Below are positions 8,679 to 61,168 of a DNA stretch of 64,000 nucleotides, in pieces. The stretch's first letter is position 1, and each line of letters begins with the position of its first letter. The notes beneath the pieces were generated by a model. That model ran no database searches, was not told the origin of the DNA, and was given only the letters and a program-made list of their open reading frames with translations. Location: NCBI GenBank assembly GCA_016840035.1, contig JAEOTC010000068.1, positions 19,128 through 83,127 on the forward strand, given 5' to 3'. The position numbers were made by a program, and so were the translations under genes. The stretch comes from Candidatus Hodarchaeota archaeon (GTDB taxonomy: Archaea > Asgardarchaeota > Heimdallarchaeia > Hodarchaeales > Hodarchaeaceae).

Positions 8679-8960
8679 TAATGAGTCTCTCCATTAGATT
8701 AATCATAAAGTGCAAAACTATAATTTCTGCTTATTTCTTATAAGTTTCCATAAGAATAAATTTGAATTAAATAATTGATAGTTAAACGCTATAAAAGAAT
8801 TTTGAAACCCATTTTTGCTGGGAGACCTCTCACGGATTAGATTTTAGTTCTAGGGCTTTTTCAATTCAAAAAGTATCACAAGTGGTGAAAAGAAAAAGCA
8901 ATTTGAAATAGTTATTCCAATCTTCCTTCCCTCGTTGGTATATTTAATTAACTTCTGAGA

Positions 8961-26521: not shown

Positions 26522-26681
26522 TTCTCTTTCACGCCGAGTAATGACTTGAATACTGAAACTTAGACAGAAGGAGAAGGATTTCTTTGAAAATATTATCCTT
26601 TCGGAAAATACGTTTACATGACTCAATATTTTCAAAAGAAGCCATTAAAGCGAAAATTCTAAATGAGAATTCTCACCTCGT

Positions 26682-39621: not shown

Positions 39622-42600
39622 ATGACTCTAGTTTCTAACGTCCAAAAAGATGAAATAGATAGAAAAGCACCGTTCCTAACCCCTAACGCCATGACTGTCT
39701 TAGAAAAACGATATTTGCTTCAAAATGATAGAGGGGAAATCATAGAAACTCCCATACAGCTATTTTCACGTGTAGCAAAATCAATTGCCGCTAATGAGTC
39801 ACGATATGGGCTTGATTCCTCTGAAATAGAGAAAAAGTTCTATGATATGATGGTTAACTTTGAATTTTTACCTAATAGTCCTACACTAATGAATGCAGGG
39901 ACAAAAATTAATCAATTATCTGCATGTTTTGTATTGCCTGTAGAAGATGATATGACATCTATTTTTCAAGCAATAAAAAATGCTGCAGTAATTCATAAGT
40001 CAGGCGGAGGTTGTGTTGCAAAGGGAACACGAGTTTTCACTTCATTTTGTGGTGTCGAAAAAATCGATACAATTTACAATCATTTTTCAAAAAAAATTGA
40101 CCCAATTTTTGAGGAGAATGCTGAGATAATTGATATATCAAATAAACAAGTGACAACTTTATCATTTGATCCACAAAGCGGTGAGATCATTTCAAAACCC
40201 ATTTCAAAACTATGGAAATATAGAATCGATGCTAAATCAACTGTTAAGATAACTACAGAAGGGAAAAATTACATTTCAACTAGCAATTGGCATCCCTTTT
40301 TTGTCTGGAATGGAAGAGAGATTAGTGAAAAAAGAGCTGATGAGTTAAAAATAGGAGAATATTTGATAACCCCTAATAAAAGTGGGATCAAGAATTGGCC
40401 CTATAAAGCTTATCAAGTAATAAATGGGATCAAGTTAGATGAGAAATTTGCTTATCTAATCGGATTGTTTCAGACAGATGGATCGTTAAATCGTTTTAAG
40501 AATACCGTGACAGGGTGGGAGGGGCTTCGTCTTCGTTTTTTCTCTACTGATAATAAACTGCTTGAAGAATATAATACAATTCTAGAACAGATTACTGGTA
40601 ATAAATACTCTATTCAGACTGATAAGAGAACTCTGCAGGGAAGTCGTATCCCTTTAAAATCTATAACTTGTTATGATTCAAAATTAAATGGAGCGATTGA
40701 AATAGCTAATAGAGGATTGGTTGGGAGTAAATCAAAGAGAGTACGCATACCAGAGCAAATTTTTAAATCACCCATTACCGTAATTTATGCATATATTGCA
40801 GCTGTTTTAGATGGGGATGGTCATGTCACCAAAAAAGAGAAAAAGATCCAATTTTCAACTGGTAGTAAAGAATTTAGTGAAGATCTAAGATCATTACTAT
40901 CAGCGTTGGGAATTAAATCAAGATTTCGTGAGAGATTGGAGACAAGAATTAAACGACAGAGCCTTACTTATGAAATAACTATTAGCGGGATAGGGAATTT
41001 TCATTCGATATCTGAGAAAATACTCAAATATCTTATTGTAGATGAAAAAAGAGAACGGATTGAATCGTATCTGAAGAGACAGCATTCTTCCGAATCATGC
41101 CCGATCTCTTTTGTGATAATTGAACCATTTCTTAATAAAGCGGGGATTGAAACAGTTAATACAGAAATTTGGAGAAAATCTATTCAAATAGGGAAGAATA
41201 AATTCTTTTTAGGACGATGGAAAGAAAAGAATAGGATTAATGTAGTGAAAGTTGTAGAGTTAATAAAGGAACTTCTCATCGGATATAAAGATTCATTCAA
41301 TGAAACGGAAATTAAATTTTTATACAAATTAACCAGAATACTTCCCTCACTTACCTCTATTATTGATATTTCTTCTGGAGAGGAGGTAGAATTCTACGAT
41401 TTTACAGTTAAAGATACAAATAATTACCTCGCAGGAAATGGATTATTCTACATTGTTCATAATACAGGATTCGCTTTTTCTCGACTCAGACCTACTAATG
41501 ACAAAGTTCAAACAACTGGAGGAGTGGCATCTGGGCCAATTTCTTTTATGACCGTTTTTAACTCTGCAACTGAAATAATTAAGCAAGGAGGAAGAAGGCG
41601 TGGAGCAAACATGGGTGTATTGCGAGTCGATCATCCTGATATACTTGAGTTCATTGAATGTAAACAGGATCTAGAGACTTTAAATAATTTTAATATTTCA
41701 GTAGGATTAACGGAAGACTTTATGCAAGCTGTTTTATCAAATTCCGATTACCCTCTCATAAATCCTAGAAATAACGAGACTACTGGTAAATTAAATGCCC
41801 GAACTGTCTTTGACAGAATCGTCCAAATGGCACATAATTCTGGTGAACCAGGAATATTATTTTTAGATCGAATCAATGCCGCAAATCCTACTCCTAAAAT
41901 CAGTAAAATCGAAGCAACCAATCCTTGCCTTACTGGCAACACGTTAATAGCTACAGCCGATGGAAGGACTTCAGTTCCCATAAAAATTCTTGCTGAAGAA
42001 TCAAAAGACGTTCCTGTATTTACTGAAGATAATCAGGGGAAAATTGCCATTAGATATATGAGAAGACCGAGATTAACAAGAAAAAATGTACCTGTGTACA
42101 AAATAACACTAGATTCAGGAGAGAATATTAAAACCACTGCTAACCATCGGTTTTATTTGAGAGATGGCACTCAGAAGAGAACGGATGAATTAAATCCCGG
42201 AGATAGTTTGCATGTTTTGACTAAAGTGTATCAGTACCAAAGAGGTAAATATTCTGTTAATCCTCATAAGAAATATGTACGAATGTACAACCGAGGGCAT
42301 TCAGATAAATCAGAACATACAGTTCTAGCCAAATTTTTCCATAATAATGATATAGAAATACCTGAAGGTTATGTTGTTCATCATATTGATTTTAATTCTG
42401 AAAATAATCATCCTTCAAATCTAGAAATCATGACTTCAGAGGAACATAATTCATTACACAACTTATCTAAAAAAGGAAATAGAAATCCAATTTTTAAAAT
42501 AAAATCAGATCCAGATAAATGGGAAGAATACAAGGCAAAAAATCCGTTTTATCACCCTACTGGAGAGAACAATCCAAGATACGGTGTGAAAGTAACAGAA

Positions 42601-44784
42601 GAAACAAAGAAGAGAATCGGAAAATCACGGAAGAAGTCATACGAAGATAATCCAGTACAAATCCAAGTTCTTTCCGAAATCGCACGAAAGAATTGGAATG
42701 ATCCTGATTATGTTGATAAAACGCAAAAAGGTTTTCTACGAAAAGCACAAGTAAAATTGAAAGAATGTCAGCAACAAACAGATCTGAAATGCTCTTTAAA
42801 TGGAAACAGCGTTATGGTTGAGAAGACCTGTGAGTATTGTGGGAAAAACTTTCATATTAGCTTCAGTAAGAGAGAGATTAGTTCGTGTAGAAAAGAGTGT
42901 TTTATGGATTTCTTCAATGAGAATGAGGAAATGATTCAGAAACGGACACGAGGAGTAAGACGTACCTACCAGATACAATCTAAGGAAAAACGTGAAAACC
43001 AGCTACAGTGTTTTATTGATTTAAAGAGAAAATTAAACCGTGATCCCTTGAAAAAGGAATGGGAGAACCAATGCAAAAAATCTTCAATACCCTATAGATT
43101 AGGAACAGAATTCGGCTTTAAAACTTATACTGAACTCAAAAATTCAGCCCTCATGTACAATCATACAGTTCTCGCTGTAGAATTATGTGGGGATGAGGAT
43201 GTATACAATGGGACAGTTGATGATTTTCATAATTTTTTCATAGGTGGGTTTAAAGAAGAAAAAACAGGAAAAGAAAGAATAAAATTCGTCAAAACTCAGA
43301 ACTGCGGTGAGCAACCCTTATTACCATATGAATCGTGCAATTTGGGCTCAATAAACCTTGGAAAGATGGTTAAAACTGATTCCACTCAGACTTATGGATA
43401 TAGCATAGATTTTGAGAGGTTAGAACAGATTACTCGACTTTCAGTGAAATTTTTAGACAATGTGATTGATCTTTCCACTTTTCCACTACCAGAAATAGAA
43501 GAAATGACAAAATCTAACCGTAAAATTGGACTTGGAGTGATGGGTTTCGCAGATCTACTAATCAAATTAGGAATCTCCTATGATTCACTGGAGGGTCTCG
43601 GAATCGCGAAAAAAGTGATGAAATTTATTCATCAAACTGCACTTCAAGCATCACAAGATTTGGCAAAAGAAAGAGGTTCATTTCCAAATTTTCCAGAAAG
43701 TACGTTGGCCGATCACTACACGATGATGAGGAATGCAACATTAACTACTTTAGCGCCTACAGGGACTATTTCAATTATTGCGGGATGTTCCAGTGGAATA
43801 GAACCTTTATTCATGTTAACCTATGAAAGACGAGTTCTTGATGATGATATTCTGGTTGAAGGATATCCATTTTTTGTGGAGAAAGCAAAACGATTGGGCT
43901 TTTACTCACAGGACCTGATGAAACAGGTGGCATTGACTGGTTCAATCTCAGAAATTGAAGAAATACCCGAGGATATCAAAAAAGTCTTCGTCACGGCACA
44001 TGATATAACGCCCGAGGCCCATGTGAGAATGCAGGCTGTTTTTCAAGGATCTGGTGTAGATAATGCTGTCTCGAAGACAATTAATTTTCCTCACGAGGCC
44101 TCTTTAGAAGATATACAACAAGCCTACCTCCTTGCATATGAATTGGGGTGTAAGGGCATAACCGTTTATCGTTCAGGTTCCCGCGCTTATGATGTACTGT
44201 CAAAGAAAGGAACGAATGAAGAATCCAGTGTTGTTGCTGAACCAATTAAAATTAAAAAACCGCGACAAAGACCCAATGTCACTCAAGGAATTACTGAACG
44301 AATAAGAGTTGGTTGTGGGACAAATTTATTTATTACAATCAACGAAGATGAAGAAGGTCTAACAGAACTGTTTTTATCCTTGGGTAAATCAGGAGGATGT
44401 GTAGCTTCTCATATTGAGGCGATGGGAAGGCTCATTTCATTGACACTACGTAGTAGAATTGATCCTGAAGAAATTATTTTACAATTAAAAGCGATCAGAT
44501 GTCCTTCACCGACTTTCGGACCAGAAGGACCAGTCCTTTCATGTGCTGATGCAGTTGCTAAATCCGTCGAAAGGTTTATCGAACAATATAGTCAAAATGG
44601 GAACGAAAAAAATTCTGTCAATGAGGGACAAAAAGATGTTAAAGAGTATGGTGACCCAGAAACGCTTTATTTAACTCATACAACATCAGGATTACGACCA
44701 GAATGTCCAGAGTGTGGTAATATTGTGGAACATAGTGAAGGGTGCATTCTTTGTCGGGTTTGTGGATATTCCAAGTGTGGATAA
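39622..44784 (+). CDS. nrdJ: adenosylcobalamin-dependent (class II) ribonucleoside-di/triphosphate reductase, interrupted by two inteins
   Basis: N-terminal NAMTVLEKRYL. KSGGG|intein|TGFAFSRLRP. ATNP|intein|CGEQPLLPYESCNLGSINL (thiyl-radical Cys loop). C-terminal CPECG...CRVCG zinc ribbon. 1720 aa in total, 777 aa of extein. Confidence 0.95.
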   Translation: MTLVSNVQKDEIDRKAPFLTPNAMTVLEKRYLLQNDRGEIIETPIQLFSRVAKSIAANESRYGLDSSEIEKKFYDMMVNFEFLPNSPTLMNAGTKINQLSACFVLPVEDDMTSIFQAIKNAAVIHKSGGGCVAKGTRVFTSFCGVEKIDTIYNHFSKKIDPIFEENAEIIDISNKQVTTLSFDPQSGEIISKPISKLWKYRIDAKSTVKITTEGKNYISTSNWHPFFVWNGREISEKRADELKIGEYLITPNKSGIKNWPYKAYQVINGIKLDEKFAYLIGLFQTDGSLNRFKNTVTGWEGLRLRFFSTDNKLLEEYNTILEQITGNKYSIQTDKRTLQGSRIPLKSITCYDSKLNGAIEIANRGLVGSKSKRVRIPEQIFKSPITVIYAYIAAVLDGDGHVTKKEKKIQFSTGSKEFSEDLRSLLSALGIKSRFRERLETRIKRQSLTYEITISGIGNFHSISEKILKYLIVDEKRERIESYLKRQHSSESCPISFVIIEPFLNKAGIETVNTEIWRKSIQIGKNKFFLGRWKEKNRINVVKVVELIKELLIGYKDSFNETEIKFLYKLTRILPSLTSIIDISSGEEVEFYDFTVKDTNNYLAGNGLFYIVHNTGFAFSRLRPTNDKVQTTGGVASGPISFMTVFNSATEIIKQGGRRRGANMGVLRVDHPDILEFIECKQDLETLNNFNISVGLTEDFMQAVLSNSDYPLINPRNNETTGKLNARTVFDRIVQMAHNSGEPGILFLDRINAANPTPKISKIEATNPCLTGNTLIATADGRTSVPIKILAEESKDVPVFTEDNQGKIAIRYMRRPRLTRKNVPVYKITLDSGENIKTTANHRFYLRDGTQKRTDELNPGDSLHVLTKVYQYQRGKYSVNPHKKYVRMYNRGHSDKSEHTVLAKFFHNNDIEIPEGYVVHHIDFNSENNHPSNLEIMTSEEHNSLHNLSKKGNRNPIFKIKSDPDKWEEYKAKNPFYHPTGENNPRYGVKVTEETKKRIGKSRKKSYEDNPVQIQVLSEIARKNWNDPDYVDKTQKGFLRKAQVKLKECQQQTDLKCSLNGNSVMVEKTCEYCGKNFHISFSKREISSCRKECFMDFFNENEEMIQKRTRGVRRTYQIQSKEKRENQLQCFIDLKRKLNRDPLKKEWENQCKKSSIPYRLGTEFGFKTYTELKNSALMYNHTVLAVELCGDEDVYNGTVDDFHNFFIGGFKEEKTGKERIKFVKTQNCGEQPLLPYESCNLGSINLGKMVKTDSTQTYGYSIDFERLEQITRLSVKFLDNVIDLSTFPLPEIEEMTKSNRKIGLGVMGFADLLIKLGISYDSLEGLGIAKKVMKFIHQTALQASQDLAKERGSFPNFPESTLADHYTMMRNATLTTLAPTGTISIIAGCSSGIEPLFMLTYERRVLDDDILVEGYPFFVEKAKRLGFYSQDLMKQVALTGSISEIEEIPEDIKKVFVTAHDITPEAHVRMQAVFQGSGVDNAVSKTINFPHEASLEDIQQAYLLAYELGCKGITVYRSGSRAYDVLSKKGTNEESSVVAEPIKIKKPRQRPNVTQGITERIRVGCGTNLFITINEDEEGLTELFLSLGKSGGCVASHIEAMGRLISLTLRSRIDPEEIILQLKAIRCPSPTFGPEGPVLSCADAVAKSVERFIEQYSQNGNEKNSVNEGQKDVKEYGDPETLYLTHTTSGLRPECPECGNIVEHSEGCILCRVCGYSKCG
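40012..41463 (+). mobile_element. intein 1 (484 aa) with LAGLIDADG homing endonuclease
   Basis: Starts CVAKGTRV (block A), has SNWHPFF (block B), and ends FYIVHN followed by Thr+1. LAGLIDADG motifs YLIGLFQTDGSL (about 40447-40485) and YIAAVLDGDGHV (about 40792-40827). Boundaries were mapped codon by codon and are in frame. Confidence 0.9.
41926..43302 (+). mobile_element. intein 2 (459 aa) with HNH-type endonuclease region
   Basis: Starts CLTGNTLIATADG (block A) with TANHRFY (block B). HNH motif VVHHIDFNSENNHPSNLEIMTSEEHNSLHN (about 42373-42462). NUMOD3-like NPRYGVKVTEETKKRIGKS. CEYCG...CRKEC. Block F VYNGTVDDFHNFFIGG. Ends VKTQN followed by Cys+1 of NPCGEQ. Confidence 0.85.
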
Positions 44785-50196: not shown

Positions 50197-50949
50197 GTGA
50201 TTCTTAGTCTTTATTTCAAAGTAAAAATTTTCGAGGAACATTCATTGAGTCAAGAAGAAGAACTAGTGTTTGAAGAGTCGCAACAAGGGATCAAAATTGT
50301 TATCTGGGGACCAACGTTGGCAGGGAAAACCACAGCTTTAAGTTTATTCCATGCAATCAAGAAAAAAGAAGATCCTGAGAGTGTTTATAACTTTTTAAAA
50401 CTTGAAGATAAAGCTACAGAAAGAACTATTGGCTTTGACCAAGCTACGTTCGGTTTAGGAGGAGGTCCAGGTAAGGGATTCAAGTACCATCTTTTTACAA
50501 CACCTGGGCAAGACAGATTTAAATCTATGAGGAAGATTGTCATTAATGGACTTCATGGATTAATTGTTGTTATTGATTCGGAAAAAGCCCGATGGGAAGA
50601 GAATAGGGACAGCTTAAAAGAACTTTTTGAAGTCTCTGGAGATAAAATATACTCCGGAGATATAAAAATTGCCATAATGCTAAATAAAATGGATTTACCT
50701 GTTGAATCTCGTATCAGTGCTGCAGATGTTGGTAGATTAATGATCGAGGCAGGTGTCTCTGATAAATTACGGGATACTTTCGCAAGTACGTTTGAAGTAA
50801 GCTGCTTAGATGCCTTGAGCGCTTTACGTGATGCATGGAATAAGGGAGAATGGAATCCCAAGCAACGCCCTCAGGCGGTACAGAGAATTATTCAACCTAT
50901 TCAAATGGTAATTCGTGATATCCTAATTTCAGAACTCCAAAAACGTTGA
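50197..50949 (+). CDS. MglA-type small GTPase (Ras-superfamily, TRAFAC)
   Basis: G1 GPTLAGKT. G3 TTPGQ, with Thr in place of the Ras Asp as in MglA TVPGQ. G4 NKMD. G5-like VSCLD. GTG start. Confidence 0.85.
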   Translation: MILSLYFKVKIFEEHSLSQEEELVFEESQQGIKIVIWGPTLAGKTTALSLFHAIKKKEDPESVYNFLKLEDKATERTIGFDQATFGLGGGPGKGFKYHLFTTPGQDRFKSMRKIVINGLHGLIVVIDSEKARWEENRDSLKELFEVSGDKIYSGDIKIAIMLNKMDLPVESRISAADVGRLMIEAGVSDKLRDTFASTFEVSCLDALSALRDAWNKGEWNPKQRPQAVQRIIQPIQMVIRDILISELQKR

Positions 50950-51151: not shown

Positions 51152-53038
51152 ATGAAGAAAAATAGACTACAGGAAATTATTGAGGGTCGCCATAAACTTG
51201 AAGAAAAGGAGAGATTACGGTTAGACCTCAAACCTTCTGAAATTCCTAGTTTACTAAAAGGAGAGGCCGCTTTATCCCCTACTACAAAAGCGGGGTGGCA
51301 AACCGAGGGTATTATACGCGCAATTATTTCAAACCTCCATAATGGAAAAAATTGGGAAGAGCTTTTCATTTATGGGGGTAGTGGAAAAGCGATGAGGAAT
51401 TGGAAGGCCTTTTACGAAACCATCGACATGCTAAAATCTTTGGAGACAAATGAAACCCTTTTTATGCAATCTGGAGTACCTTATGGAAAAACCATAACTC
51501 ACGAATTTGCCCCACGGTGTGTTGTGACAAATTCAGTCATTGTTCCGAACTGGACACAGTCCTTTCAAGAAATGGTTGACGCAGGACTGACAGTTTATGG
51601 TCAAATGACTGCAGGAAGTTGGATTTTTATTGGATTACAAGGGATAATCCAGGGGACATATGAAACAATGATTGAAGCAATAAAATCCGCTGAAACAGCA
51701 GTTAACTTTAGTAAATTAAATTCATTTGAACAAAAAATCATCGTTACCGCGGGCCTTGGTCTAATGGGAGGAGCTCAAGCCTTAGCCATTAAAATGACTG
51801 GAAAAATCGCGCTTATTGCCGAGATTGACCCCTCAAATCTAGATCGGATGTACAACGAAGGCCGAGAAAAAGGAATCCCATATCTAGATATCAAGGTTAC
51901 TTCTATCGAAGAGGGTGTAAAACTTGCACAGAAGTATGCGGAAAAAGATGAACCAACCTCTATTGGAATATTATGTAATGCCGTGGATTTGCTTGACTAT
52001 TTACTAAAGTATGAAATTACTCCTCATGTTCTTACTGACCAAACTTCAGCACATGATATGTTAAATGGATATGTTCCCTCTGGTATGTCTTTTGCAGAAG
52101 CAGTGGCCCTTAGAAAATCTAATCCTCAAAACTATAAAAAATTAGCCTTTAAAACAGTAAAAAAGCATGTAGAACTAATGGTAGAGCTACAGAAAAGAGG
52201 ATCGGAAACATTTGATTATGGAAATAATATTCGGACACAAGCGTTTAAGGGGGGCTATGGTAATGCTTACGATTTTTCAGGCTTTGTTCCAAATTATATA
52301 AGGCCATTGTTTTGTGAAGGAAAAGGACCATTTAGATGGGCCGCTTTATCTAACAATCCAGAAGACATTTTGACAACTGATAAATATGCTAAAATGCTTT
52401 TTCATGACGATTCAATGCTAGTTAAATGGATCAACCTCGCGTCAGAGTATATTCCTTTTGAGAAAGGCCTACCCGCACGAGTATTTTGGGCAGGTTACAA
52501 AGGTAGAGCAGCATTTGGTATGTTGTTAAATAAACTGTATGCCGATAAACTGATAGATGCACCCGTAATAATAGGTAGAGATCATTTAGATGGAGGATCT
52601 GTAGCAAGTCCTTTTAGAGAAACTGAAGGGATGAAGGATGGATCAGATGCGATAGGTGATTATCCAGTACTGAACCTTTTGGGAAATTCTCTTTCTGGTG
52701 CAACATGGGTGAGCTATCATGGAGGAGGAGGAGTCGGGGTCGGATATTCCCTTCATGCTGGACAGGTATGTGTTGCTGATGGTACTCAAATTTCACAGGA
52801 ACGATTATTTAGAGTACTTACTTGGGATCCTATGTCAGCAATATTGCGTCATGCGGCTGCAGGGTACGATAAATCTATTCAGATTGCAAGAACAAACGGA
52901 ATCATCGTTCCTGGAATCACCGAAACAAAATTTGTTGATTATAGACAATTATATGAAGAATTGATTTCAAAAGTCAAGGAACGTACTGGAATAAGTTTAT
53001 TTCCCCCCTCAGACAACATCAATTTTCAGATCCTTTAG
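51152..53038 (+). CDS. hutU: urocanate hydratase
   Basis: Long collinear identity blocks with bacterial urocanase: YGQMTAGSWIFIGLQGIIQGTYET, TDQTSAHD, FDYGNNIR, GFVPNYIRPLFCEGKGPFRWAALS, IGRDHLDGGSVASPFRETEGMKDGSDAI. Confidence 0.95.
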   Translation: MKKNRLQEIIEGRHKLEEKERLRLDLKPSEIPSLLKGEAALSPTTKAGWQTEGIIRAIISNLHNGKNWEELFIYGGSGKAMRNWKAFYETIDMLKSLETNETLFMQSGVPYGKTITHEFAPRCVVTNSVIVPNWTQSFQEMVDAGLTVYGQMTAGSWIFIGLQGIIQGTYETMIEAIKSAETAVNFSKLNSFEQKIIVTAGLGLMGGAQALAIKMTGKIALIAEIDPSNLDRMYNEGREKGIPYLDIKVTSIEEGVKLAQKYAEKDEPTSIGILCNAVDLLDYLLKYEITPHVLTDQTSAHDMLNGYVPSGMSFAEAVALRKSNPQNYKKLAFKTVKKHVELMVELQKRGSETFDYGNNIRTQAFKGGYGNAYDFSGFVPNYIRPLFCEGKGPFRWAALSNNPEDILTTDKYAKMLFHDDSMLVKWINLASEYIPFEKGLPARVFWAGYKGRAAFGMLLNKLYADKLIDAPVIIGRDHLDGGSVASPFRETEGMKDGSDAIGDYPVLNLLGNSLSGATWVSYHGGGGVGVGYSLHAGQVCVADGTQISQERLFRVLTWDPMSAILRHAAAGYDKSIQIARTNGIIVPGITETKFVDYRQLYEELISKVKERTGISLFPPSDNINFQIL

Positions 53039-53104
53039 AATTGCATCCAACTAAAGAATTAATTACTACAAATTACTTGAAATATTTAATCAGAAGGGTT
53101 CACA

Positions 53105-53569
53105 ATGGACAATCTAACACAAGAATCACCGTCAATCTCTCAGTGGATATCAAAGCACAAAGGAATTACTTTCTCATTAGGATTTGGTATAATATTCACA
53201 GGTATAGAAGTACTCTCAATTTTTGGATTCGACATAACCACTAGTGGCCCAATGTTGGTTATGATGCAAACTATTCTGTTAATAATCATCTTCTTTGGGA
53301 TGATGATTTTTATCTATAATTTTGGATACTTAGTAATCATGTTGACCGTTGATGAGGGTTTAAATGATGAGGAAGTAATTTTACTTAAGTGGATATTACG
53401 TAGAGCTGCATTGATATCGGTAGGATGGTTTGTTGGTGTTATTGTATTGATGTTAACCTTGAGTGATCAACCGTATTTATTAGCTGGAATGAATTGTCTT
53501 CTATTAGCCTTATTATTCATTATTCTTAGGAAAGGTGAGAATCCTTTAGTTGAAGGAGTCTCAATTTAA
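53105..53569 (+). CDS. membrane protein (4 TM), hypothetical
   Basis: 154-aa ORF with four hydrophobic helices. It ends 32 nt upstream of the AAA+/vWA gene. Confidence 0.5.
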   Translation: MDNLTQESPSISQWISKHKGITFSLGFGIIFTGIEVLSIFGFDITTSGPMLVMMQTILLIIIFFGMMIFIYNFGYLVIMLTVDEGLNDEEVILLKWILRRAALISVGWFVGVIVLMLTLSDQPYLLAGMNCLLLALLFIILRKGENPLVEGVSI

Positions 53570-53601
53570 CTTTCCCTCCTCTATTGTTGGAAATGTAATG
53601 T

Positions 53602-56559
53602 ATGGTTGATCCTAAAGGAAAATCACAGGAAATTTTTGAAGTACAACTATCATTTTCAGATTTTATAGGAAATCATTCATTGAAACTTCTCCTCATTCTT
53701 CTAGCAATCGACCCATCCTTGAGTGGAATGATTATTAAGGGGAATACAGGGACTGGTAAATCATTAATTCTTAAATTATTCAGGCAACTCAAAATACCCG
53801 CTGTTTTTCATAGGGATTGTGATTTTAACTGCTCTCCTAATAGTGAAACTTTGTGTGAAGAATGTAGTAGCGAAATTTTATTATCCCATACTAATAATAT
53901 CAAGAGTTCTCATGTTCCCATTATTAAGATGCCTGTTTATACCTCACTCGATAATTTAATTGGGAATCTCGATTTGCAATTCGATTTCCGTCCTGGTATG
54001 CTTGGGAAGGCTAATAATGGATATTTAATTGTTGACGATTTTCATTTACTTACAGAAGAAACAAAAGCTGTTCTTTTGAATATATGGCAAAGAAAAGTAA
54101 ACTCTGTTCAGAGGAATACTGTCTCCTTAGAACACCCCAGTAATTTTTGTTTGATATCTACATACAATCCAGTATTCTATGATAAAGAACCCAGCTGGAT
54201 GGATAGGTTTGCTTTTTCTTTCCCCCTACATTATGACCAGACTGTTGAGACTCATCTTGATATCATGAATCAAAACCTATACAAAGAAGATGCACAAGAG
54301 ATTGCACACATAGAGGAAATATATGACGAAAATTCTTCCCTTATAAAGGAAATCATCCGTTCTCGTAAGCTATTGGGTAAAGTATCGATTTCTTCTGATC
54401 TTGTTTTGTTTATCGCGAAAATTTGCAGTTTCAAAGGTCTAGATGGCGTAAGAGCCGATATTTCGTTTGTAAAAGGAGCAAAAGCTCTAGCTAGCTTTCA
54501 CAATCGGACCTATGTGACTAAGGAAGACATTTTATTTCTTATCGCGCCTGTTTTATCCCATCGTTTGTCAACTAGGGGCCTTAATGAATTGATGGAATCA
54601 TTAGATGGCATGCAGGCTAGTGAAAGAGTTGAATCTAGGAAGAAAGGTTTGAAGCAGGAATTGACAAGTGATTTTCCTCAAAAAAAGGGTAAAACATTCT
54701 CTTTTTTCTCAATAGTAGAAAAAATAATTCCATTTATTAGTATACTTTTCATTTCTTTTGTTATTAGTGCTTTACTCGTTAGATTTTTTTTTACACCTAG
54801 AGTGTTCATGTTTATTTTTGGTATTTTATCTTTATGGGGTTTTGGCTCCTTTTTGCTTTACATTTTGGTACGGAGACGCAAAAAATTGTTACTCCAATAC
54901 AGAAAGAAAGAAGATCAGCAAGATCAACCCCCTGATGTAAGTTCCTTTTCAAAAGTAAAATCTCTACGTTTAACAGAAACGACAAAAGAAGAAACTCGAG
55001 AGTTCAAGAAGAAACCTGAGCTTGATATTGAGGAAGATAAATCTACTCGTGGAAAAATTTTTCGATTTATAGGACTTCAAAAACGAAGAGGGATGATTAC
55101 TTTATCACAGAACCAAAGATATTGGATTTATATTTATGGAATCTTCATGATTTTCATTAGTATCATTCTTTACACAATTTTGATAATATACCTACCTGCA
55201 GAAATATGGGTTGCTATTTTATTCCTACTTCTCTGCCTTTTAACAATAGGATTCCTCCAACAATACAATCAGGAAAAATGGAGAATCAGACGAGTGGCAG
55301 ATGTTGGGGCATCAGCTGAAGAAACTAGTACCATGATAGATGGAGAGGGAATTGGCTCTCATATATCTCCAACAAAGAATCAAAATCGAGATTACAATTT
55401 AATGGAAGAATATGGGAGAAATATATGGCGAAAATTATCTAATTTAAACATGGTTCATCCTGAAACGGAAAAAAATGTGAAAAATCGACTGTTATTAGAT
55501 ACCAAGTCAGAAGGTACACACAAATCAATATCGAGAATAACTGGTGAAAGATTACCACAGGAAAGAGGACTAATCGATACGAAATTTCGATATCAGGCTG
55601 GTAAACGAGCTTTAAGTCTAAGTTCATCTCAAACAGGACGAATTGTCGGAAGTAAACCTTTCAAGGAATCTCCTAAGAATATTCATATAATGGCAACTAT
55701 AATGAATGCCTTAAGACATCAGAAACGCAGAAAATTAAGGGATTCAACAAAAAAGATTGAGATTAAGCTAGCAGATGTTCATGAAAAAGTGTACTGTGCA
55801 CGAGTGTCAGCTACAATAATTTTCGTGCTTGATCTATCTGAATCTATTATGAATGTAATCAATACTGTTTCAGCTTCAGTAAATTGGCTAAGTAGACAAG
55901 CGTATTTATATCGTGATAGGGTAGGCCTTGTAGTTTTACAAAAAACACAGGCAAAGGTGATACAGGCTCCAACTTCAAACCTAAATTTAGTGAAGCGAAA
56001 ATTACAAGAATTAGAAGTATCCGGATCCACTCCTTTACCCTCAGGTATACAAAAATCGTTAGATTTAATCCGGATTGATCGTATCAGAAGCAATGATGAA
56101 ACTATTCCGATGATAGTACTAATAACTGATGGTGCTTCAAATATCCCACTTTTAACAGATCCTATAACAGGAATTAAACGAGATAAACCAATTTCATCCC
56201 TTGGTATCGATTTGGCTATCAAAATGTCCATAAATGATTGTCTTATACTTGGACAACAGATAAAAAAAGACAAGATATCATTGGTAATTTTCAGCACGAA
56301 TACTCAAGGAATGTATTTATTACAAAAATATCCTGGGAGGGGACAACAAACCCCTTCACAATTTTTGGATACACTTATGAAAACATCAGACTTTTTCCAA
56401 GGAAAACAATTTATTCACCTTTGGTCTTACACATTACTAAAAACGATGCAAAATATCACAGGAGGGCATTTATTTTTTCTAACAAAAGAATTTATAGATA
56501 ATAATTTTGAAACGTTAAGAATAGCACGATCTAAAATTATAGCTAGTATAAACGGGTGA
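53602..56559 (+). CDS. ChlI/ChlD-like AAA+ domain - transmembrane linker - vWA (MIDAS) domain fusion protein
   Basis: FSDFIGNHSLKLLLILLAIDPSLSGMIIKGNTGTGKS parallels BchI [38 protein letters not shown]. Walker B reads YLIVDDFHLL (D in place of E). WMDRFA is present. About 4 TM helices are encoded at about 54720-55260. The C-terminal vWA has an intact MIDAS (VLDLSES, GSTPL, ITDGASN). Confidence 0.8.
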   Translation: MVDPKGKSQEIFEVQLSFSDFIGNHSLKLLLILLAIDPSLSGMIIKGNTGTGKSLILKLFRQLKIPAVFHRDCDFNCSPNSETLCEECSSEILLSHTNNIKSSHVPIIKMPVYTSLDNLIGNLDLQFDFRPGMLGKANNGYLIVDDFHLLTEETKAVLLNIWQRKVNSVQRNTVSLEHPSNFCLISTYNPVFYDKEPSWMDRFAFSFPLHYDQTVETHLDIMNQNLYKEDAQEIAHIEEIYDENSSLIKEIIRSRKLLGKVSISSDLVLFIAKICSFKGLDGVRADISFVKGAKALASFHNRTYVTKEDILFLIAPVLSHRLSTRGLNELMESLDGMQASERVESRKKGLKQELTSDFPQKKGKTFSFFSIVEKIIPFISILFISFVISALLVRFFFTPRVFMFIFGILSLWGFGSFLLYILVRRRKKLLLQYRKKEDQQDQPPDVSSFSKVKSLRLTETTKEETREFKKKPELDIEEDKSTRGKIFRFIGLQKRRGMITLSQNQRYWIYIYGIFMIFISIILYTILIIYLPAEIWVAILFLLLCLLTIGFLQQYNQEKWRIRRVADVGASAEETSTMIDGEGIGSHISPTKNQNRDYNLMEEYGRNIWRKLSNLNMVHPETEKNVKNRLLLDTKSEGTHKSISRITGERLPQERGLIDTKFRYQAGKRALSLSSSQTGRIVGSKPFKESPKNIHIMATIMNALRHQKRRKLRDSTKKIEIKLADVHEKVYCARVSATIIFVLDLSESIMNVINTVSASVNWLSRQAYLYRDRVGLVVLQKTQAKVIQAPTSNLNLVKRKLQELEVSGSTPLPSGIQKSLDLIRIDRIRSNDETIPMIVLITDGASNIPLLTDPITGIKRDKPISSLGIDLAIKMSINDCLILGQQIKKDKISLVIFSTNTQGMYLLQKYPGRGQQTPSQFLDTLMKTSDFFQGKQFIHLWSYTLLKTMQNITGGHLFFLTKEFIDNNFETLRIARSKIIASING

Positions 56560-56566
56560 ACTTTGA

Positions 56567-57418
56567 TTGGGAAAACAGATAATAAGCCTTCCTAAGCAAC
56601 TTTATCGACAAGGAGAACTCATTCAAGTAAGAATCCAATACTCACCGTCAGATTTTCCTATCCAGAAATGTGATATCAAATTAATTGGAAAAGAGAAAGT
56701 AGAATTCACCTTCCAATCTTTTACAGGTAAAAAAGGATTTCAACCAATTTGGGGTCTATTACTTCCGAGTAAACATTTTTATCAGGAAACCATTTTTTTA
56801 GATGAGCCCGTTGAGCTCGAGATATCGGGAAAAAGTCATGATGTAGCTGAAATCGAAATCCCCCTCAATGCCATACCTTCGTATTACGGAGAAAATGGAA
56901 AAGTAACATATTTTGTTCAAGTACGGTATGAAAGTATGACAAGAGTTGAAAAGAAAGGTGAAGTCCAAATTCTGATCGACTCAGACTATCAAACCAAAAA
57001 ACAACGAGATACAGTTAATATAGGGTCAGGAAGTATAGTAATTGACCATCTAAGTCCCTTACTTATTAATCAGGAAAACCGCATTTTAATCAATACAGAG
57101 GAAATAAAGACCCCTATTCGATTGATGTTGACAGGACAAGAAACGGTGACAGCATCAGGTGTTACAATTAATAATCCAGTTAAAGAAGTTCCACTTGGGC
57201 AATTTTTTTCAAAGGAAGACATTACTGACTTTCAAATGAAGTTTATCATCCCATCAGGATATCAACAGAGTTTCGAGGGGCTGCATACACGACTTGAATA
57301 CTCAATAGAGGTTCAGTCGGTACATTTGCTATCTCGATTTGGGATTAAACGCGAAAAAATTCGGACAATCTCCCGAATACCAGTCCGTGTAGAAGAAGGA
57401 ACGCAAATTAATCAATAG
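56567..57418 (+). CDS. arrestin-fold (arrestin/Vps26/Spo0M-like) two-lobed protein, tentative
   Basis: LYRQGELIQVRIQY...CDIKLIGKEKVEF resembles the arrestin_N opening. Each half ends with an arrestin-like P-S-[YF]-x-G...Y strand motif: IPSYYGENGKVTYFVQVRYE (about 56874) and IPSGYQQSFEGLHTRLEYSIEVQ (about 57247). TTG start 7 nt after the vWA gene. Confidence 0.55.
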   Translation: MGKQIISLPKQLYRQGELIQVRIQYSPSDFPIQKCDIKLIGKEKVEFTFQSFTGKKGFQPIWGLLLPSKHFYQETIFLDEPVELEISGKSHDVAEIEIPLNAIPSYYGENGKVTYFVQVRYESMTRVEKKGEVQILIDSDYQTKKQRDTVNIGSGSIVIDHLSPLLINQENRILINTEEIKTPIRLMLTGQETVTASGVTINNPVKEVPLGQFFSKEDITDFQMKFIIPSGYQQSFEGLHTRLEYSIEVQSVHLLSRFGIKREKIRTISRIPVRVEEGTQINQ

Positions 57419-57464
57419 ATTCGATTCCTTGCGTAGTCCAAACGCTAAGTGAAAAAAATGACTC

Positions 57465-57953
57465 TTGCGACACATTAAAAATAGAAATGCAAAGATATTG
57501 GTTTACATGTTACGACGAGAATTAGAACCTATCTTAGATGACATCATTAATTGGAGCATAAGAATAATTGGAATTAGTGTCGTAATCTCAATTTTAAGTA
57601 TTTTTATCACTGTAGATTTATCGGAATCCAGTACCTCATTTATTGAGATTTTTATCCTATCTGTCAGTAATTTTTCATTTTTTCTTGGCATGCTCGCAAT
57701 CTGTGCTGGATTGTTAATAGTATTTTTCAAAAGACCTGAAGGATCAGGTTCTTCCATAAGAAACAAAGAGGAGTTTATACCAATATATAAGAAAGGACGA
57801 AGAAAAACTCCTGTTTCTCAATTAGAGAAGAAAATTCATTCAAACTCTAAAACATCTTCCAAGCGTGATCTAAAATTAATACTTAGTGGTATTATCTCAG
57901 TTGCATTTGCAATAATTATATGGATTGGCTACTCGGTTATTATTCTGATCTGA
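57465..57953 (+). CDS. membrane protein (3-4 TM), hypothetical
   Basis: 162-aa ORF with hydrophobic helices separated by a basic loop (KKGRRKTPVSQLEKK). Confidence 0.5.
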   Translation: MRHIKNRNAKILVYMLRRELEPILDDIINWSIRIIGISVVISILSIFITVDLSESSTSFIEIFILSVSNFSFFLGMLAICAGLLIVFFKRPEGSGSSIRNKEEFIPIYKKGRRKTPVSQLEKKIHSNSKTSSKRDLKLILSGIISVAFAIIIWIGYSVIILI

Positions 57954-57963
57954 TTCCTTGTGT

Positions 57964-58713
57964 TTAAGGTTGGAATAACGAAAAGGCAATCAATACTGGA
58001 AGAGGAGCAAGGCATAAGGCAATGAGAATCGCATAGGCGTTTCTAAGATCTTTATTCCTGTTGAAAAATAAATAAATAGATACAATTGACTTTTCCAAAA
58101 ATAAAATCAAAAGGTAATTGTGAAGAACAGAATCTAATAAAGTAATTGCACGCAATTCTAGTTCTTCACCATTAAATCTAGTATGCCAAGGTGAGATAGG
58201 TTCAAGACCAGAATCTAGAATTGATAATACACTTCCATCATCGAACTCGACTTCTACCCAAGCATGCCATTTACCGATAAGTACATAACTATCGTACCCT
58301 CTTAAAATAAGAAGTGAACATGCTACAATTGCTAGTCCATCACAATCATCTGATCCGCTTTTTAAAACCTCTGAAATACTTGGCCGGTAATCCCAGGACA
58401 AATAATTTATGATATCTTCGTTATATGTTATTCGTTGGCGTATAAACCTGCCTACAGCGTAAACTTCTAATGCCTCAGGATCAGTTGGGTATGAAGACAG
58501 AGCTAAGAAATCATTCGCAAAGTAGTATTCAAACTCATAATTTAAAACCTGAATTTGAGGATCTTGGGGTTGAATTGAATCTGTAAGAGCAATTCGATGA
58601 TTTACCTGATCAGACCAAGCAAGGGGATTGGGTGTAAACCCTGTGAATAGATAAATTATAGTAAGGAGTCCTGCAACAAGTAGTTCTTTATGTGAAATAA
58701 TTCGAGGACTCAT
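57964..58713 (-). CDS. transglutaminase-like (papain-fold Cys-His-Asp) membrane protein
   Basis: Catalytic-core pattern GSDDCDGLAIVACSLLILRGY ... GKWHAWVEVEF ... ILDSG. An N-terminal TM helix and C-terminal TM helices. Confidence 0.8.
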   Translation of the reverse strand: MSPRIISHKELLVAGLLTIIYLFTGFTPNPLAWSDQVNHRIALTDSIQPQDPQIQVLNYEFEYYFANDFLALSSYPTDPEALEVYAVGRFIRQRITYNEDIINYLSWDYRPSISEVLKSGSDDCDGLAIVACSLLILRGYDSYVLIGKWHAWVEVEFDDGSVLSILDSGLEPISPWHTRFNGEELELRAITLLDSVLHNYLLILFLEKSIVSIYLFFNRNKDLRNAYAILIALCLAPLPVLIAFSLFQP

Positions 58714-58935
58714 TGTTAATACTTCTTAGGATTAAAATTATTAAAATCTTCTTAAGCGAAATAATGATCTTTTTGTCTAAATGTCTGTCATTTCATCTAA
58801 TAGCTTAGAAATCTATATCAATCTTTATCTTAGTGCAATCTGTTCGGAAAGGAAACTATTTCCATATAATTTATATTAATTTCTTCGTTTGTGAAGTAAA
58901 CGGAATATTCCTATTTGGAACAACCAATAATAATG

Positions 58936-60939
58936 CTATTGAACACGGTTACCCTTTTCATCCTCGGAGTTGTCTTTCTCAAGAATTTGGGTCACATTTT
59001 CAGCTGCTTTTTTCCTTGATGCGATAAATCGATCTTTGGAAATTTGATCTAATCGATCAACCATAGGTTGTGTCAATAAAGTCCTTGAAGGTATACTCTC
59101 CTGTAGAGTGTGAACTTTTCCCTGATAATAAACTGTTGTGAGGAAAAAGAAAAGCATTCCGATAAAAAATAATGGGAGAATATCATAATGTTCTGGTTTA
59201 CTTTGAAAGCGGTTTAAACTACTATCAAAACTCAAGAGATCTATGTAAAAATCTTTTGTTAAAGAATATGCAGCCCTATAATTCATCTTATTGTACTCAT
59301 TGAGGATGTCGTTATATGAAGCGTTCAAATACAGGAGATAGGTTTGAAGATTAGGATTATAGGTTATGGAGTCAATTCTCTGATATGCATTATTAATTTT
59401 GAATAAAGATGCTTGAAGTAATGTATCGATTTGTCCACGTTGGATATTATCCTTTGCAAAAATACTAAACTTCGAAGCATGAGTATAATAAGTCATAGGA
59501 TCATTTACGAAATTTCCAATCATCCCAAATTGAAACGGATGCATTAAAGCAATTTGATGTCCAAGCTCATGAATTATAGTTTGGGTTAATCCTTGTAAGG
59601 GTTGAGGATTCGATCGATTATTTCCATATGTCAAACCATAGTCGTGACTGATGATGGTTAATGGAATATCATTTGTACCTCTTAATGCGATTCCTAAAAG
59701 GCCTGGTTCCATCTTCGCCTTTTCTGGAATAGCGAAAGTCGCATTGTCAAACAAAAAAGCGAATGTTTGAAAATGAGAGGTATAAAACGCTTTATATTCC
59801 TGTTCAAAATAACGAGAAGATTCTGTATAAAGTTTATAGTACATTGGTAAGAGATCTACAGAATATTCCCAACGTGAATTTTTATTAAATTCTCCCCAAT
59901 GGACTGTTGAATCTTGAACTTCATTGTAAAGATCTGGTATATCAGAAAGGTTAACAAATCTGACTGAAGCTTCAATATTATACCATGGAAGTATATCTCT
60001 AAACACTTCTTCAATGAGGGTGGTGTTAACAGTCCAATCAAGATCTGATGTTGGAATTCCAGTTAAGTTGTTGAGGACTAGAATGTCGAATGCATAGTGA
60101 AGTCCTGTATCGAAGTCACCCATAGGGGTTAAAGGTTTATAAACAAAATCCTGAACCCAGAGGTTTCTCTCAATTTCATATATCCATTCAGCGAGATATT
60201 CTGCTAGTCTATTTCGTCCATATGGAGTATTAAGATTATATAATGATGTCAACTCTTGAATGGTACTATTCTGTCCACTATCTCGTAGGACATAAGAATC
60301 TGCTGATAGATCAAGGTAATACAATCTTTCTTGATTCCCATATCCGATCATATAGTTCCGCCCAAAAGGAGCACCAGAATCTGGATCGATATATGTCTCA
60401 TTATACCAATGCTGTTTGTATTCTGTATCATCGAGATTAGAGAAATTTCCTATTATTAGGCTATATCCAGGGATAGGAACTTCCCCCGTCAGTTGACCAT
60501 AATTATCAGCTAACCATTCAAGAGTATCACTGGCCGAGATATATTTTCCTGTGTCGCTAGTGCCATCAGAATGGTTTATAGTGTCTGGTATAGCAGTGGC
60601 ATTCAAGAATGTAAAAAATGAGGTGTCAAAATTAGTGGGAGCGAGTTCATAAGTATGATTTACAAAGAATAGTTTTTCAGTGTAGTCTTGATCGAAATAA
60701 CTATACACATTTTGTTCAAGCAGTGATTCAGCAAGAGGATTTTGAGGAGTACCAAGAATGGAGCTCATAATGGCGTGATCGAATCCTGTGAATATAATTC
60801 TCGATCTTATTGTACTTGATTGGTAAGGAAAATTAGGTATAGTATAATAATCAGCTGCAACTGGGGTAATATCGATTGTAGCATTAATCAATATTAGAAG
60901 AAGGCCTATAAATACAATTTTTTTTCGATTTGAATTCAT
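58936..60939 (-). CDS. membrane-anchored extracellular zinc metalloprotease, metzincin-like
   Basis: HELGHQIALMH (HExxHxxAxxH) followed by a possible Met-turn DPMTYY. Signal-anchor MNSNRKKIVFIGLLLILINA from the ATG at 60939 (the track ORF extends to 61092). C-terminal TM ILPLFFIGMLFFFLTTVYY. Confidence 0.7.
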   Translation of the reverse strand: MNSNRKKIVFIGLLLILINATIDITPVAADYYTIPNFPYQSSTIRSRIIFTGFDHAIMSSILGTPQNPLAESLLEQNVYSYFDQDYTEKLFFVNHTYELAPTNFDTSFFTFLNATAIPDTINHSDGTSDTGKYISASDTLEWLADNYGQLTGEVPIPGYSLIIGNFSNLDDTEYKQHWYNETYIDPDSGAPFGRNYMIGYGNQERLYYLDLSADSYVLRDSGQNSTIQELTSLYNLNTPYGRNRLAEYLAEWIYEIERNLWVQDFVYKPLTPMGDFDTGLHYAFDILVLNNLTGIPTSDLDWTVNTTLIEEVFRDILPWYNIEASVRFVNLSDIPDLYNEVQDSTVHWGEFNKNSRWEYSVDLLPMYYKLYTESSRYFEQEYKAFYTSHFQTFAFLFDNATFAIPEKAKMEPGLLGIALRGTNDIPLTIISHDYGLTYGNNRSNPQPLQGLTQTIIHELGHQIALMHPFQFGMIGNFVNDPMTYYTHASKFSIFAKDNIQRGQIDTLLQASLFKINNAYQRIDSITYNPNLQTYLLYLNASYNDILNEYNKMNYRAAYSLTKDFYIDLLSFDSSLNRFQSKPEHYDILPLFFIGMLFFFLTTVYYQGKVHTLQESIPSRTLLTQPMVDRLDQISKDRFIASRKKAAENVTQILEKDNSEDEKGNRVQ

Positions 60940-61168
60940 TTTGGGTACACACCAATTCTTGGTGAATAAATTTTCTCTTTTATCTGAATCTGAGATACCA
61001 TGAAGGTTGTTACAGAAAATCTTTGGAATATGAAAAGTTTCACTGATCTGGCAGGATAATCTTAGCTCGATGACTGCTTCAACTAGTACCAATGTTCACC
61101 AAAAAAGGAGTGAAAGAAAAACTCGTGTGAGTTAAAGAGTTTTCTAAGGTTTTTATCCTGACATTTCA

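Follow-up and report, generated by a model that had tools for sequence, protein, structure and literature searches.

In the chelatase subunits ChlD and BchD the AAA+ domain is degenerate, and such proteins need a ChlI partner. The metal-ion-dependent adhesion site (MIDAS) domains of ChlD, integrin-I and Rea1/midasin act as clamps on an acidic residue of a partner protein; in integrin-I and Rea1/midasin, this residue completes the coordination of the MIDAS metal. A AAA+ domain and a vWA/MIDAS partner that act on some further protein or complex are the theme of the MoxR-vWA systems (RavA-ViaA, CbbQ-O, NorQ-D, CoxD-E and Bat/TgpA). Among arrestins, the alpha-arrestins of yeast control amino-acid permeases, and fungal PalI acts together with the arrestin PalF. 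Prokaryotic arrestin-like Spo0M proteins are known (PMC2515105), and arrestin- and Vps26-like proteins have already been listed as eukaryotic signature proteins in Asgard archaea (10.1101/2021.04.02.438162; 10.1101/2025.11.06.686947; PMC10307638). Here we analysed 64,000 nucleotides (nt) of a Hodarchaeales contig, referred to as the window, in which a ChlD-like protein and an arrestin-fold protein are encoded side by side, flanked by genes for two small membrane proteins, tmA and tmB. We propose that the four genes form a single Hodarchaeales-specific operon encoding a membrane complex that works at the cytoplasmic face; we hold this reading tentatively, as a little short of an even chance. 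The pairing of an arrestin with a ChlD-like protein appears to be undescribed, though assembled from known kinds of parts: a literature search returned no paper tying an arrestin-like protein to a ChlD/vWA protein, in line with an earlier note on this DNA that did not recognise the combination as a described system.

Orthologous loci (labelled L001 and so on) were found in metagenome-assembled genomes (MAGs) labelled Candidatus Hodarchaeota, Heimdallarchaeota B3_Heim and Candidatus Hodarchaeum mangrovi. All of these MAGs are Asgard archaea of the order Hodarchaeales, in keeping with the earlier note's description of the host as Asgard-like; Hodarchaeales are placed as sister to eukaryotes in some analyses, a placement that is debated (PMC10307638, PMC12222021). 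The four co-directional open reading frames (ORFs) are separated by 32, 7 and 46 nt, and the stop codon of tmB lies 10 nt from that of a convergent transglutaminase-like gene; these distances and the ORF coordinates, as first noted, were confirmed from the sequence (Table 1). The tmB gene probably starts at the downstream ATG rather than at the mechanically called TTG, because all orthologs align from that Met and because the upstream extension is interrupted by a stop codon in the closest ortholog (L001); with this start the gap to the arrestin gene is 88 nt. Judged by protein-level conservation, the five ORFs are real genes: the ChlD-like and transglutaminase-like proteins are conserved in seven further genomes (eight in total with the window), and the tmA, arrestin-fold and tmB proteins in eight further genomes (nine in total).

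The order and tight spacing of the four co-directional genes, which the earlier note had proposed as a single transcript, hold in every one of the eight genomes with a ChlD-like gene (the window, L001–L004 and L007–L009). The shared order in these genomes is PIG-L (minus strand), Arf-like GTPase, hutU, tmA, ChlD-like, arrestin, tmB, transglutaminase-like (minus), zincin-like (minus) and Opp (minus). Gaps across genomes are 22–32 nt between tmA and the ChlD-like gene, mostly 0–18 nt between the ChlD-like and arrestin genes, and mostly 3–31 nt between the arrestin gene and tmB. Because the ChlD-like-arrestin gaps are mostly this short, translation of the arrestin gene is probably coupled to that of the ChlD-like gene. 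Identity to the window proteins is 47–77% for tmA, 42–68% for the ChlD-like protein, 36–68% for the arrestin-fold protein, 32–62% for tmB and 44–82% for the transglutaminase-like protein, with corresponding values of 84–97% for the Arf-like GTPase and 74–88% for hutU.

Profile searches assigned the AAA+ domain of the 985-amino-acid (aa) protein to the ChlI/ChlD class. In a profile search of the PDB, ChlI matched residues 11–331 with 187 bits and the BchD vWA domain matched residues 739–851 with 46 bits, bearing out the initial view that the ATPase domain belongs to this class and not to MoxR. Pfam matches were Mg_chelatase (26 bits, gathering threshold (GA) 20.3), AAA_lid_2 (47 bits, GA 22.7) and VWA_2 (35.7 bits, GA 27); there was no MoxR-family Pfam match, AAA_5 matched weakly, and the best AAA+ matches were ChlI-class. 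Among NCBIfam families, TIGR02442 scored 339.1 bits against a cut-off of 779.45, BchD-ChlD (TIGR02031) scored 253 bits against 499.55, and BchI-ChlI scored 173 bits, so that no equivalog threshold was reached. An exact-match look-up of the protein returned no record. In its overall plan the protein resembles ChlD/BchD and TIGR02442, with a ChlI-class AAA+ module and lid, a linker, and a vWA domain whose MIDAS is complete, and it shares with ChlD a GKRAxxxxxxxGRxxG...H..ATxxxA segment ahead of the vWA domain.

The linker between the AAA+ and vWA domains differs from that of ChlD/BchD. It is ~390 residues long and contains four transmembrane (TM) segments and a conserved loop in place of a Pro-rich, acidic soluble linker. 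Hydropathy placed the hydrophobic segments at residues ~366–395, 399–424, 506–531 and 535–556, forming two hairpins with very short connecting turns, flanked by Lys/Arg-rich stretches; together with the alignment, this agrees with the proposal in the earlier note that a TM region joins the AAA+ domain to the vWA domain. The AAA+ domain, the 80-residue loop between the hairpins and the vWA domain are all predicted to be cytoplasmic. The loop is rich in Ser/Thr and acidic residues and carries the motif SSFSxVKxFR...TKE...LDxEEDxSxxGKIxRFxGLQxxxG, with invariant columns at S448, F449, S450, V452, K453, R456, E463, E478, S481, G484, K485, I486, F489, G491, Q493 and G497. The vWA domain is nearly invariant and is the best-conserved part of the protein; its MIDAS (D744-L-S746-E-S748, T810, D843) has D744, S746, S748, T810 and D843 unchanged across the orthologs.

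The AAA+ domain, by contrast with that of canonical relatives, has lost most of its catalytic motifs. Walker A (GxxGxGKS) is intact and the sensor-2 Arg (GxRADI) is retained, as seen in alignment with those relatives. Walker B, however, reads DD in every ortholog where nearly all relatives have DE, the TEDR, VEREG and sensor-1/NPEEGELRPQ motifs have been lost in the Hodarchaeal family, the arginine-finger position (LDRF) is Lys in six of eight orthologs, and the beta-hairpin insert carries a 7-residue deletion. The motif set of an active ChlI-type ATPase (Walker A/B, sensor-1, arginine finger, sensor-2) is thus incomplete. Because the catalytic motifs are degenerate, the domain is probably a pseudo-ATPase that binds nucleotide but is hydrolysis-poor, like that of genuine ChlD, and the label "membrane ATPase" given to the protein in the earlier note is doubtful.

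These features raise the possibility that the protein is a divergent ChlD/CobT-like chelatase D subunit whose ChlI motor and ChlH/CobN subunit are encoded elsewhere, and whose neighbours are irrelevant. Such an assignment would fit the degenerate AAA+ domain, which matches the condition of true ChlD/BchD, and the identity of the best-scoring families, TIGR02442 (putative cobaltochelatase, 339 bits) and BchD-ChlD (253 bits). It fits less well with scores far below the equivalog cut-offs of 779 and 499.55, and with the replacement of the usual linker by four TM segments and a conserved loop. The Walker B sequence DD and the arrestin-fold and small membrane neighbours also set the protein apart from ChlD/BchD. 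In addition, no CobN/ChlH or stand-alone ChlI gene was found in the window or within ~10 kb in the ortholog loci, extending to all orthologous loci the earlier observation that the window lacks a ChlH/CobN partner. The window has five ORFs of at least 840 aa (a pilin-like protein, a 1102-aa protein, an intein-bearing ribonucleotide reductase, a helicase and an M48 peptidase), and none of the five was CobN-like when scanned. The restriction of a fast-evolving family to a single order is also unlike a core cofactor-synthesis enzyme. We consider the chelatase explanation unlikely, also in view of the wider set of relatives described below.

When 1.84 billion representatives were searched exhaustively with HMMER, only about four full-length members of the 985-aa family were recovered, plus fragments. 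The next tier of relatives consists of ChlI-ChlD fusions of 740–1060 aa scoring 280–355 bits, and ~19 of the best 45 of these have 2–8 hydrophobic segments in the linker. The TM-linked ChlI/ChlD architecture is therefore found beyond this locus and is common among the nearest archaeal relatives, including proteins from Methanomethylicia, Bathyarchaeota and Asgard MAGs. The Methanomethylicia and Bathyarchaeia fusions and the ~1060-aa Asgard paralog share the domain order and TM linker of the window protein, and the contexts of the TM-linked relatives contain neither CobN, which speaks further against the chelatase explanation, nor an arrestin-fold neighbour. They differ from the window protein in that they keep the canonical AAA+ motifs (the next tier retains DE, TEDR, VEREG, NPEEGELRPQ and LDRF) and are mostly orphan genes, as the Methanomethylicia gene, the Bathyarchaeia-type gene and one further metagenomic gene appear to be. 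A rough neighbour-joining tree of the AAA+ domain places the Hodarchaeal family on a long branch and does not resolve its sister group. From these sequence comparisons, the Hodarchaeal 985-aa family is a fast-evolving, ATPase-degenerate branch of a wider archaeal theme of TM-linked ChlI-ChlD proteins, which is apparently so far uncharacterised.

A second Asgard cluster with a TM-anchored ChlD-like gene is present in MAGs labelled Promethearchaeota and Hermodarchaeota (L010, 1452–7874; L020, 5906–12332; also L011), and its homolog in Hodarchaeota is P0023. This cluster begins with a 347-aa stand-alone ChlI-like AAA+ protein and a multi-TM ChlD-like protein of 1063–1066 aa whose Walker B is canonical; these are followed by a soluble protein of 259 aa and a polytopic membrane protein of 171 aa, with an Arf-like GTPase gene on the other strand within 3 kb. 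The presence in Asgard genomes of a ChlI-like protein beside the paralogous ChlD is a point in favour of the chelatase explanation. In composition, the cluster parallels the window genes, with a TM-anchored ChlD-like protein, a soluble protein and a small polytopic protein. The 259-aa protein has no Pfam hit, and hhalign detected no relationship between it and the arrestin family (probability 0.2%).

The 283-aa protein encoded downstream of the ChlD-like gene belongs to the arrestin clan, as the earlier note had suggested, on the evidence of Pfam matches, a structural model and a fold search. Arrestin_N matched the window protein with 30 bits (GA 24.9), and Arrestin_C matched the L017 ortholog with 27.7 bits, equal to its GA of 27.7. 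Across 11 family members at E≤0.1, Arrestin_N matched 10, Arrestin_C 9 and Rgp1 7, and the Spo0M and Vps26 profiles were not among the Pfam matches. An AlphaFold2 (AF2) model, for which six sequences were aligned, shows two lobes made up entirely of beta structure and has a predicted local distance difference test (pLDDT) score of 73. The first 50 Foldseek matches in the PDB were all from the arrestin clan (TXNIP, Vps26A/B/C, ARRD-6, and visual and beta-arrestins), with E-values of 1e-11 to 1e-7 over ~310 columns; the top matches, at E 1e-11 to 1e-8, were TXNIP, Vps26, ARRD-6 and visual arrestin. Only the fold search matched known structures; a sequence search of the PDB with the arrestin profile gave no significant match. 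As in the eukaryotic arrestin clan, there are two beta-sandwich lobes, each with an IPxS(Y/F)...Y.[IV]E signature. The protein differs from eukaryotic arrestins in being short, in having no visible PPxY motif in its 283 residues and no C-terminal tail, and in a family-specific loop at residues 43–70 (EKVEFxxQSxxGKKGFxPxW). This loop is strongly conserved, is left unresolved in the AF2 model and is a candidate interaction loop.

Neither of the small membrane proteins matched a Pfam family at threshold. By hydropathy, tmA (154 aa) has about four TM segments; in the nine-genome alignment, it has an invariant loop, DEGLN[DE]EE, and an invariant C-terminal tail, [RK/RQ]GENPL[TV]EG. The N-terminus, second loop and C-terminus together contain seven Lys and Arg residues, and the other loops contain none; because all Lys/Arg fall in these three regions, the acidic loop and tail are predicted to be cytoplasmic. 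The tmB protein has three TM segments and a basic loop, predicted to be cytoplasmic, with a conserved FxPKY motif. Sub-threshold SUR7/PalI matches were seen for three of nine tmB orthologs (L002, L007 and L017; best E 1.9e-4, 21.6 bits, GA 29.6). We judged these, and weak matches to MARVEL, claudin and tetraspanin, to be probably compositional, reflecting hydrophobic segments. The gene set resembles the fungal Pal/Rim system (PalF/Rim8, PalH/Rim21, PalI/Rim9) in that an arrestin-fold protein occurs with small multi-pass membrane proteins; it is unlike Pal/Rim in that tmB has three TM segments rather than four, and in that the cluster lacks a 7-TM receptor as well as genes of the ESCRT and ubiquitin systems. 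A PADLOC scan of the module proteins found no defence-system match, the sole hit being a marginal, generic 2TM-effector for tmB (E 0.0066), and we rejected the possibility that the module is a known anti-phage defence system.

The likeliest alternative to a functional module is that the four proteins are functionally unrelated and that their genes lie in a region that has been little rearranged. The ~17-kb block from TGT to Opp has the same order in all eight genomes, and its housekeeping neighbours are 74–97% identical, suggesting that the genomes are fairly close. By contrast, the gaps between the ChlD-like and arrestin genes are very short and stay conserved at ~40% protein identity, and the four genes are co-directional while flanking genes change strand. 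The metagenomic locus L017 (SDBT01006609.1) bears on both sides of this question. In L017, tmA, the arrestin gene and tmB are intact and adjacent despite an altered downstream flank, with hutH and an M20 peptidase gene in place of the transglutaminase-like, zincin-like and Opp genes, and despite an upstream IS605 OrfB (TnpB-like) element at 3038–4300; persistence of the three genes in this setting counts against colinearity alone. The same locus has lost the ChlD-like gene while retaining the other three, a point in favour of colinearity. The ChlD-like gene is reduced there to its last ~68 codons (8732–8992), which are in frame, 53% identical to the nearest ortholog, and end 2 nt before the arrestin start; such a remnant fits with translational coupling of the arrestin gene to an upstream ORF. 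The recurrence, in the paralogous Asgard cluster, of a TM-anchored ChlD-like protein with a ~260-aa soluble protein and a small polytopic protein is a further argument against mere colinearity, which we regard as unlikely.

Several points weigh against the proposed four-gene operon and complex. All loci come from one order, with ~17 kb (TGT, PIG-L, Arf-like GTPase, hutU ... Opp) colinear; hence, the evidence from synteny is weaker than it looks, and the shared gene order could reflect inheritance instead of selection. Neither the exhaustive HMMER search nor genome and metagenome scans with the arrestin alignment returned a family member from beyond Hodarchaeales, so that the co-occurrence lacks an independent lineage. 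L017 indicates that tmA, the arrestin gene and tmB are not strictly dependent on the ChlD-like gene, unless the deletion is recent or the locus misassembled. The hutU gene may be on the same transcript as the module. The topology was derived solely from hydropathy and the positive-inside rule. Lastly, the arrestin model is of moderate quality, with one of five models confident and a global TM-score of 0.3–0.36, so that the lobes match those of known arrestins but their mutual orientation does not. The case for a module is purely comparative and concerns a narrow family, and its function is inferred.

If the four proteins do form a complex, we suggest that the pseudo-AAA+ domain would mediate oligomerisation of the ChlD-like protein on the cytoplasmic side of the membrane. 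Like that of true ChlD, this domain would bind nucleotide and serve oligomerisation and regulation, and would not be a motor. The work would fall to the MIDAS, clamping an acidic residue of a partner protein; the best candidate ligands would lie in tmA, as its DEGLN[DE]EE loop or its GENPLxEG tail. Rea1/midasin offers a parallel, in that it has a AAA+ module and a MIDAS in one polypeptide and uses the MIDAS ligand clamp that we propose here; the relationship to Rea1 and integrin I is limited to domain classes, and the window protein differs in having a single ChlI-class AAA+ domain that is probably inactive and is membrane-anchored. The arrestin-fold protein could serve as a soluble adaptor with two possible docking sites, the Ser/Thr-rich and acidic loop in the ChlD-like protein or the basic FxPKY loop in tmB. 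Assembly may be gated by the binding of nucleotide. On this view the complex would not be a metal chelatase; it would act on small membrane proteins as their nucleotide-gated scaffold or adaptor.

The hutU gene (urocanate hydratase) lies 51–85 nt upstream of tmA, co-directionally, in nine of nine loci. The constant place of the module beside hutU (and hutH in L017) and peptide-uptake genes hints, by association alone, at a role in amino-acid or peptide nutrition. A more specific version of this idea, by loose analogy with the yeast alpha-arrestins, is that the arrestin-fold protein controls how abundant or how active the small membrane proteins are in histidine, urocanate or peptide uptake, together with hutU/hutH and the peptide-uptake genes. 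The module of L017 lies inside a hutU...hutH pair, and other neighbours include candidate extracellular proteases, an M20 peptidase and an Opp transporter, all of which would suit such a regulator. Yet tmA and tmB, at ~150 aa with about four and three TM segments, resemble no known transporter, hutH is absent from the window, and a TATA-like AT-rich box ~25–35 nt ahead of the tmA start in most orthologs suggests that the module has a promoter separate from that of hutU. The argument is one of guilt by association. We think a nutrient-linked regulator very unlikely. A scan for sigma-70 promoters and intrinsic terminators gave counts equal to those of shuffled sequences; such signals are inapplicable to an archaeon.

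The transglutaminase-like gene that faces tmB encodes a candidate Cys protease. Its Cys124 (DDCDG) and His150 (KWHxWxE) are invariant, and the catalytic Asp is present in most orthologs. Transglut_core scored 18.3 bits, under its GA of 23, and matches three of eight members; LapG matched with E 0.0013 in NCBIfam and E 0.13 for PDB 4u65. A single-sequence AF2 model had a pLDDT of 34. The protein is like LapG proteinases in its Cys and His contexts and in a catalytic domain that is predicted, from charge distribution, to be extracytoplasmic, and is unlike them in having three TM anchors and in that every match is under the family threshold. The earlier note had included this gene in a five-gene module, by analogy with MoxR plus vWA/DUF58 plus TgpA and with Bat operons. 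The gene does converge on tmB at 3–110 nt in all eight genomes, its catalytic residues are conserved, and a shared motif, ATTGCAY, occurs upstream of both this gene and tmA in most orthologs. Nevertheless, it is encoded on the other strand and has an upstream region of its own (140–320 nt), it is missing from L017 where tmA, the arrestin gene and tmB remain, and its LapG-like domain is predicted to lie on the other side of the membrane from the cytoplasmic AAA+, vWA and arrestin-fold domains. Because of this predicted location, the opposite-strand grouping and the absence from L017, we consider that the gene is probably not a member of the module. The wider analogy is not supported either: the AAA+ domain is ChlI-class and fused to the vWA domain, there is no DUF58 or BatA-type protein, and the neighbourhood of AAA_3, separate vWA/DUF58 and TgpA-like genes that marks MoxR-vWA/Bat/TgpA systems was not found. 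The transglutaminase-like neighbour is apparently unlinked. We regard a five-gene module as the least probable of the alternatives, which rank, by falling likelihood, as inherited gene order, a chelatase D subunit, a nutrient-linked regulator and the five-gene version.

The ATTGCAY motif lies just past the hutU stop codon in five of eight orthologs, and 60–150 nt upstream of the transglutaminase-like start in eight of eight. It is not enriched in the window (19 observed, 12.3 +/- 3.3 expected), which counts against its use as a link between the two genes; it could be the site of a shared regulator or a chance occurrence. The transglutaminase-like gene probably belongs to a separate set of genes for extracytoplasmic proteolysis and peptide uptake. 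The 718-aa protein encoded upstream of it has an N-terminal signal-anchor, a C-terminal TM segment and the motif HELGHQIALMH, with the large domain predicted to be outside; it has no Pfam hit itself, but weak matches to Reprolysin, M43 and M10 (met-zincin) were obtained with its orthologs. In Hodarchaeales, this protein is conserved beside the Opp transporter; it is a candidate for a surface protease that supplies peptides for uptake. An Arf/Ras-like GTPase gene lies two genes upstream of the module. Asgard genomes carry many Arf/Ras-like GTPases, and the presence of an Arf-like GTPase near both ChlD-TM clusters may be due to chance.

Elsewhere in the window, the large subunit of ribonucleotide reductase is broken by intein sequences with splicing domains and LAGLIDADG and HNH homing-endonuclease domains. 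Two further long ORFs, of 1102 and 1005 aa, are listed with the other features in Table 1.

Table 1. Positions of the module genes, their domains, neighbouring genes and other features in the window.
Feature	Position	Strand	Description or basis
tmA	53105–53569	+	154 aa; ATG start
ChlD-like protein	53602–56559	+	985 aa; ATG start; AAA+, TM hairpin, 80-residue loop, TM hairpin, ChlD-type pre-vWA segment, vWA/MIDAS
AAA+ module, ChlI/ChlD class (residues 1–350)	53602–54651	+	Pfam, NCBIfam, PDB ChlI profile, motif alignment
First TM hairpin (residues ~366–424)	54697–54873	+	Hydropathy; position conserved in alignment
Inter-hairpin loop (residues ~425–505)	54874–55116	+	Invariant alignment columns
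Second TM hairpin (residues ~506–556)	55117–55269	+	Followed by conserved RRVADxGASxxETS segment
vWA domain with complete MIDAS	55804–56301	+	Pfam VWA_2, PDB BchD vWA, invariant columns
Arrestin-fold protein	56567–57418	+	283 aa; two lobes; TTG start 7 nt past ChlD-like stop
tmB, mechanical ORF	57465–57953	+	162 aa; TTG start
tmB, probable revised start	57507–57953	+	148 aa; ATG start
Transglutaminase-like Cys protease candidate	57964–58713	-	249 aa; ATG start; DDCDG, KWHxWxE; one N-terminal and two C-terminal TM segments
Met-zincin-like protein	58936–61092	-	718 aa; HExxH; upstream of transglutaminase-like gene; Opp ABC transporter genes precede
hutU (urocanate hydratase)	51152–53038	+	TIGR01228, 652 bits; directly upstream of tmA
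Arf/Ras-like GTPase	50197–50949	+	250 aa; Arf, 32.5 bits
ATTGCAY past hutU stop	53039–53046		
ATTGCAY upstream of transglutaminase-like start	58833–58840	-	
Ribonucleotide reductase large subunit	39622–44784	+	1720 aa; intein sequences
1102-aa ORF	23327–26635	-	No Pfam match at E≤0.001
1005-aa ORF	5661–8678	-	Weak matches to archaeal type IV pilin N-terminal domain and DUF7289 only

The locus provides a first genomic-context clue to the role of an Asgard arrestin-fold protein, and a testable set of partners for it. Should the four proteins prove to assemble into one complex, the arrestin fold would have been tied to membrane proteins before eukaryotes, and the ChlI/ChlD scaffold would have a use other than in chelatases. 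Because TM-linked ChlI-ChlD fusions occur in several phyla, none with CobN nearby, our data also suggest that archaeal annotations of "Mg-chelatase subunit D" may hide an uncharacterised family of membrane proteins. A bolder reading, which we consider quite improbable, is that the Hodarchaeal arrestin/Vps26-fold protein is already an adaptor for membrane proteins, recruited to, or given cargo by, a membrane-anchored MIDAS scaffold that descends from a chelatase D subunit, and that cargo is recognised through the cytoplasmic loops or tails of small membrane proteins. We know of no eukaryotic counterpart in which a ChlD-like vWA protein and small membrane proteins are partners of an arrestin. 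If correct, this reading would place a forerunner of the arrestin-type cargo adaptors in a prokaryote, where it is paired with a ChlD-like AAA+/vWA protein that eukaryotes do not use.

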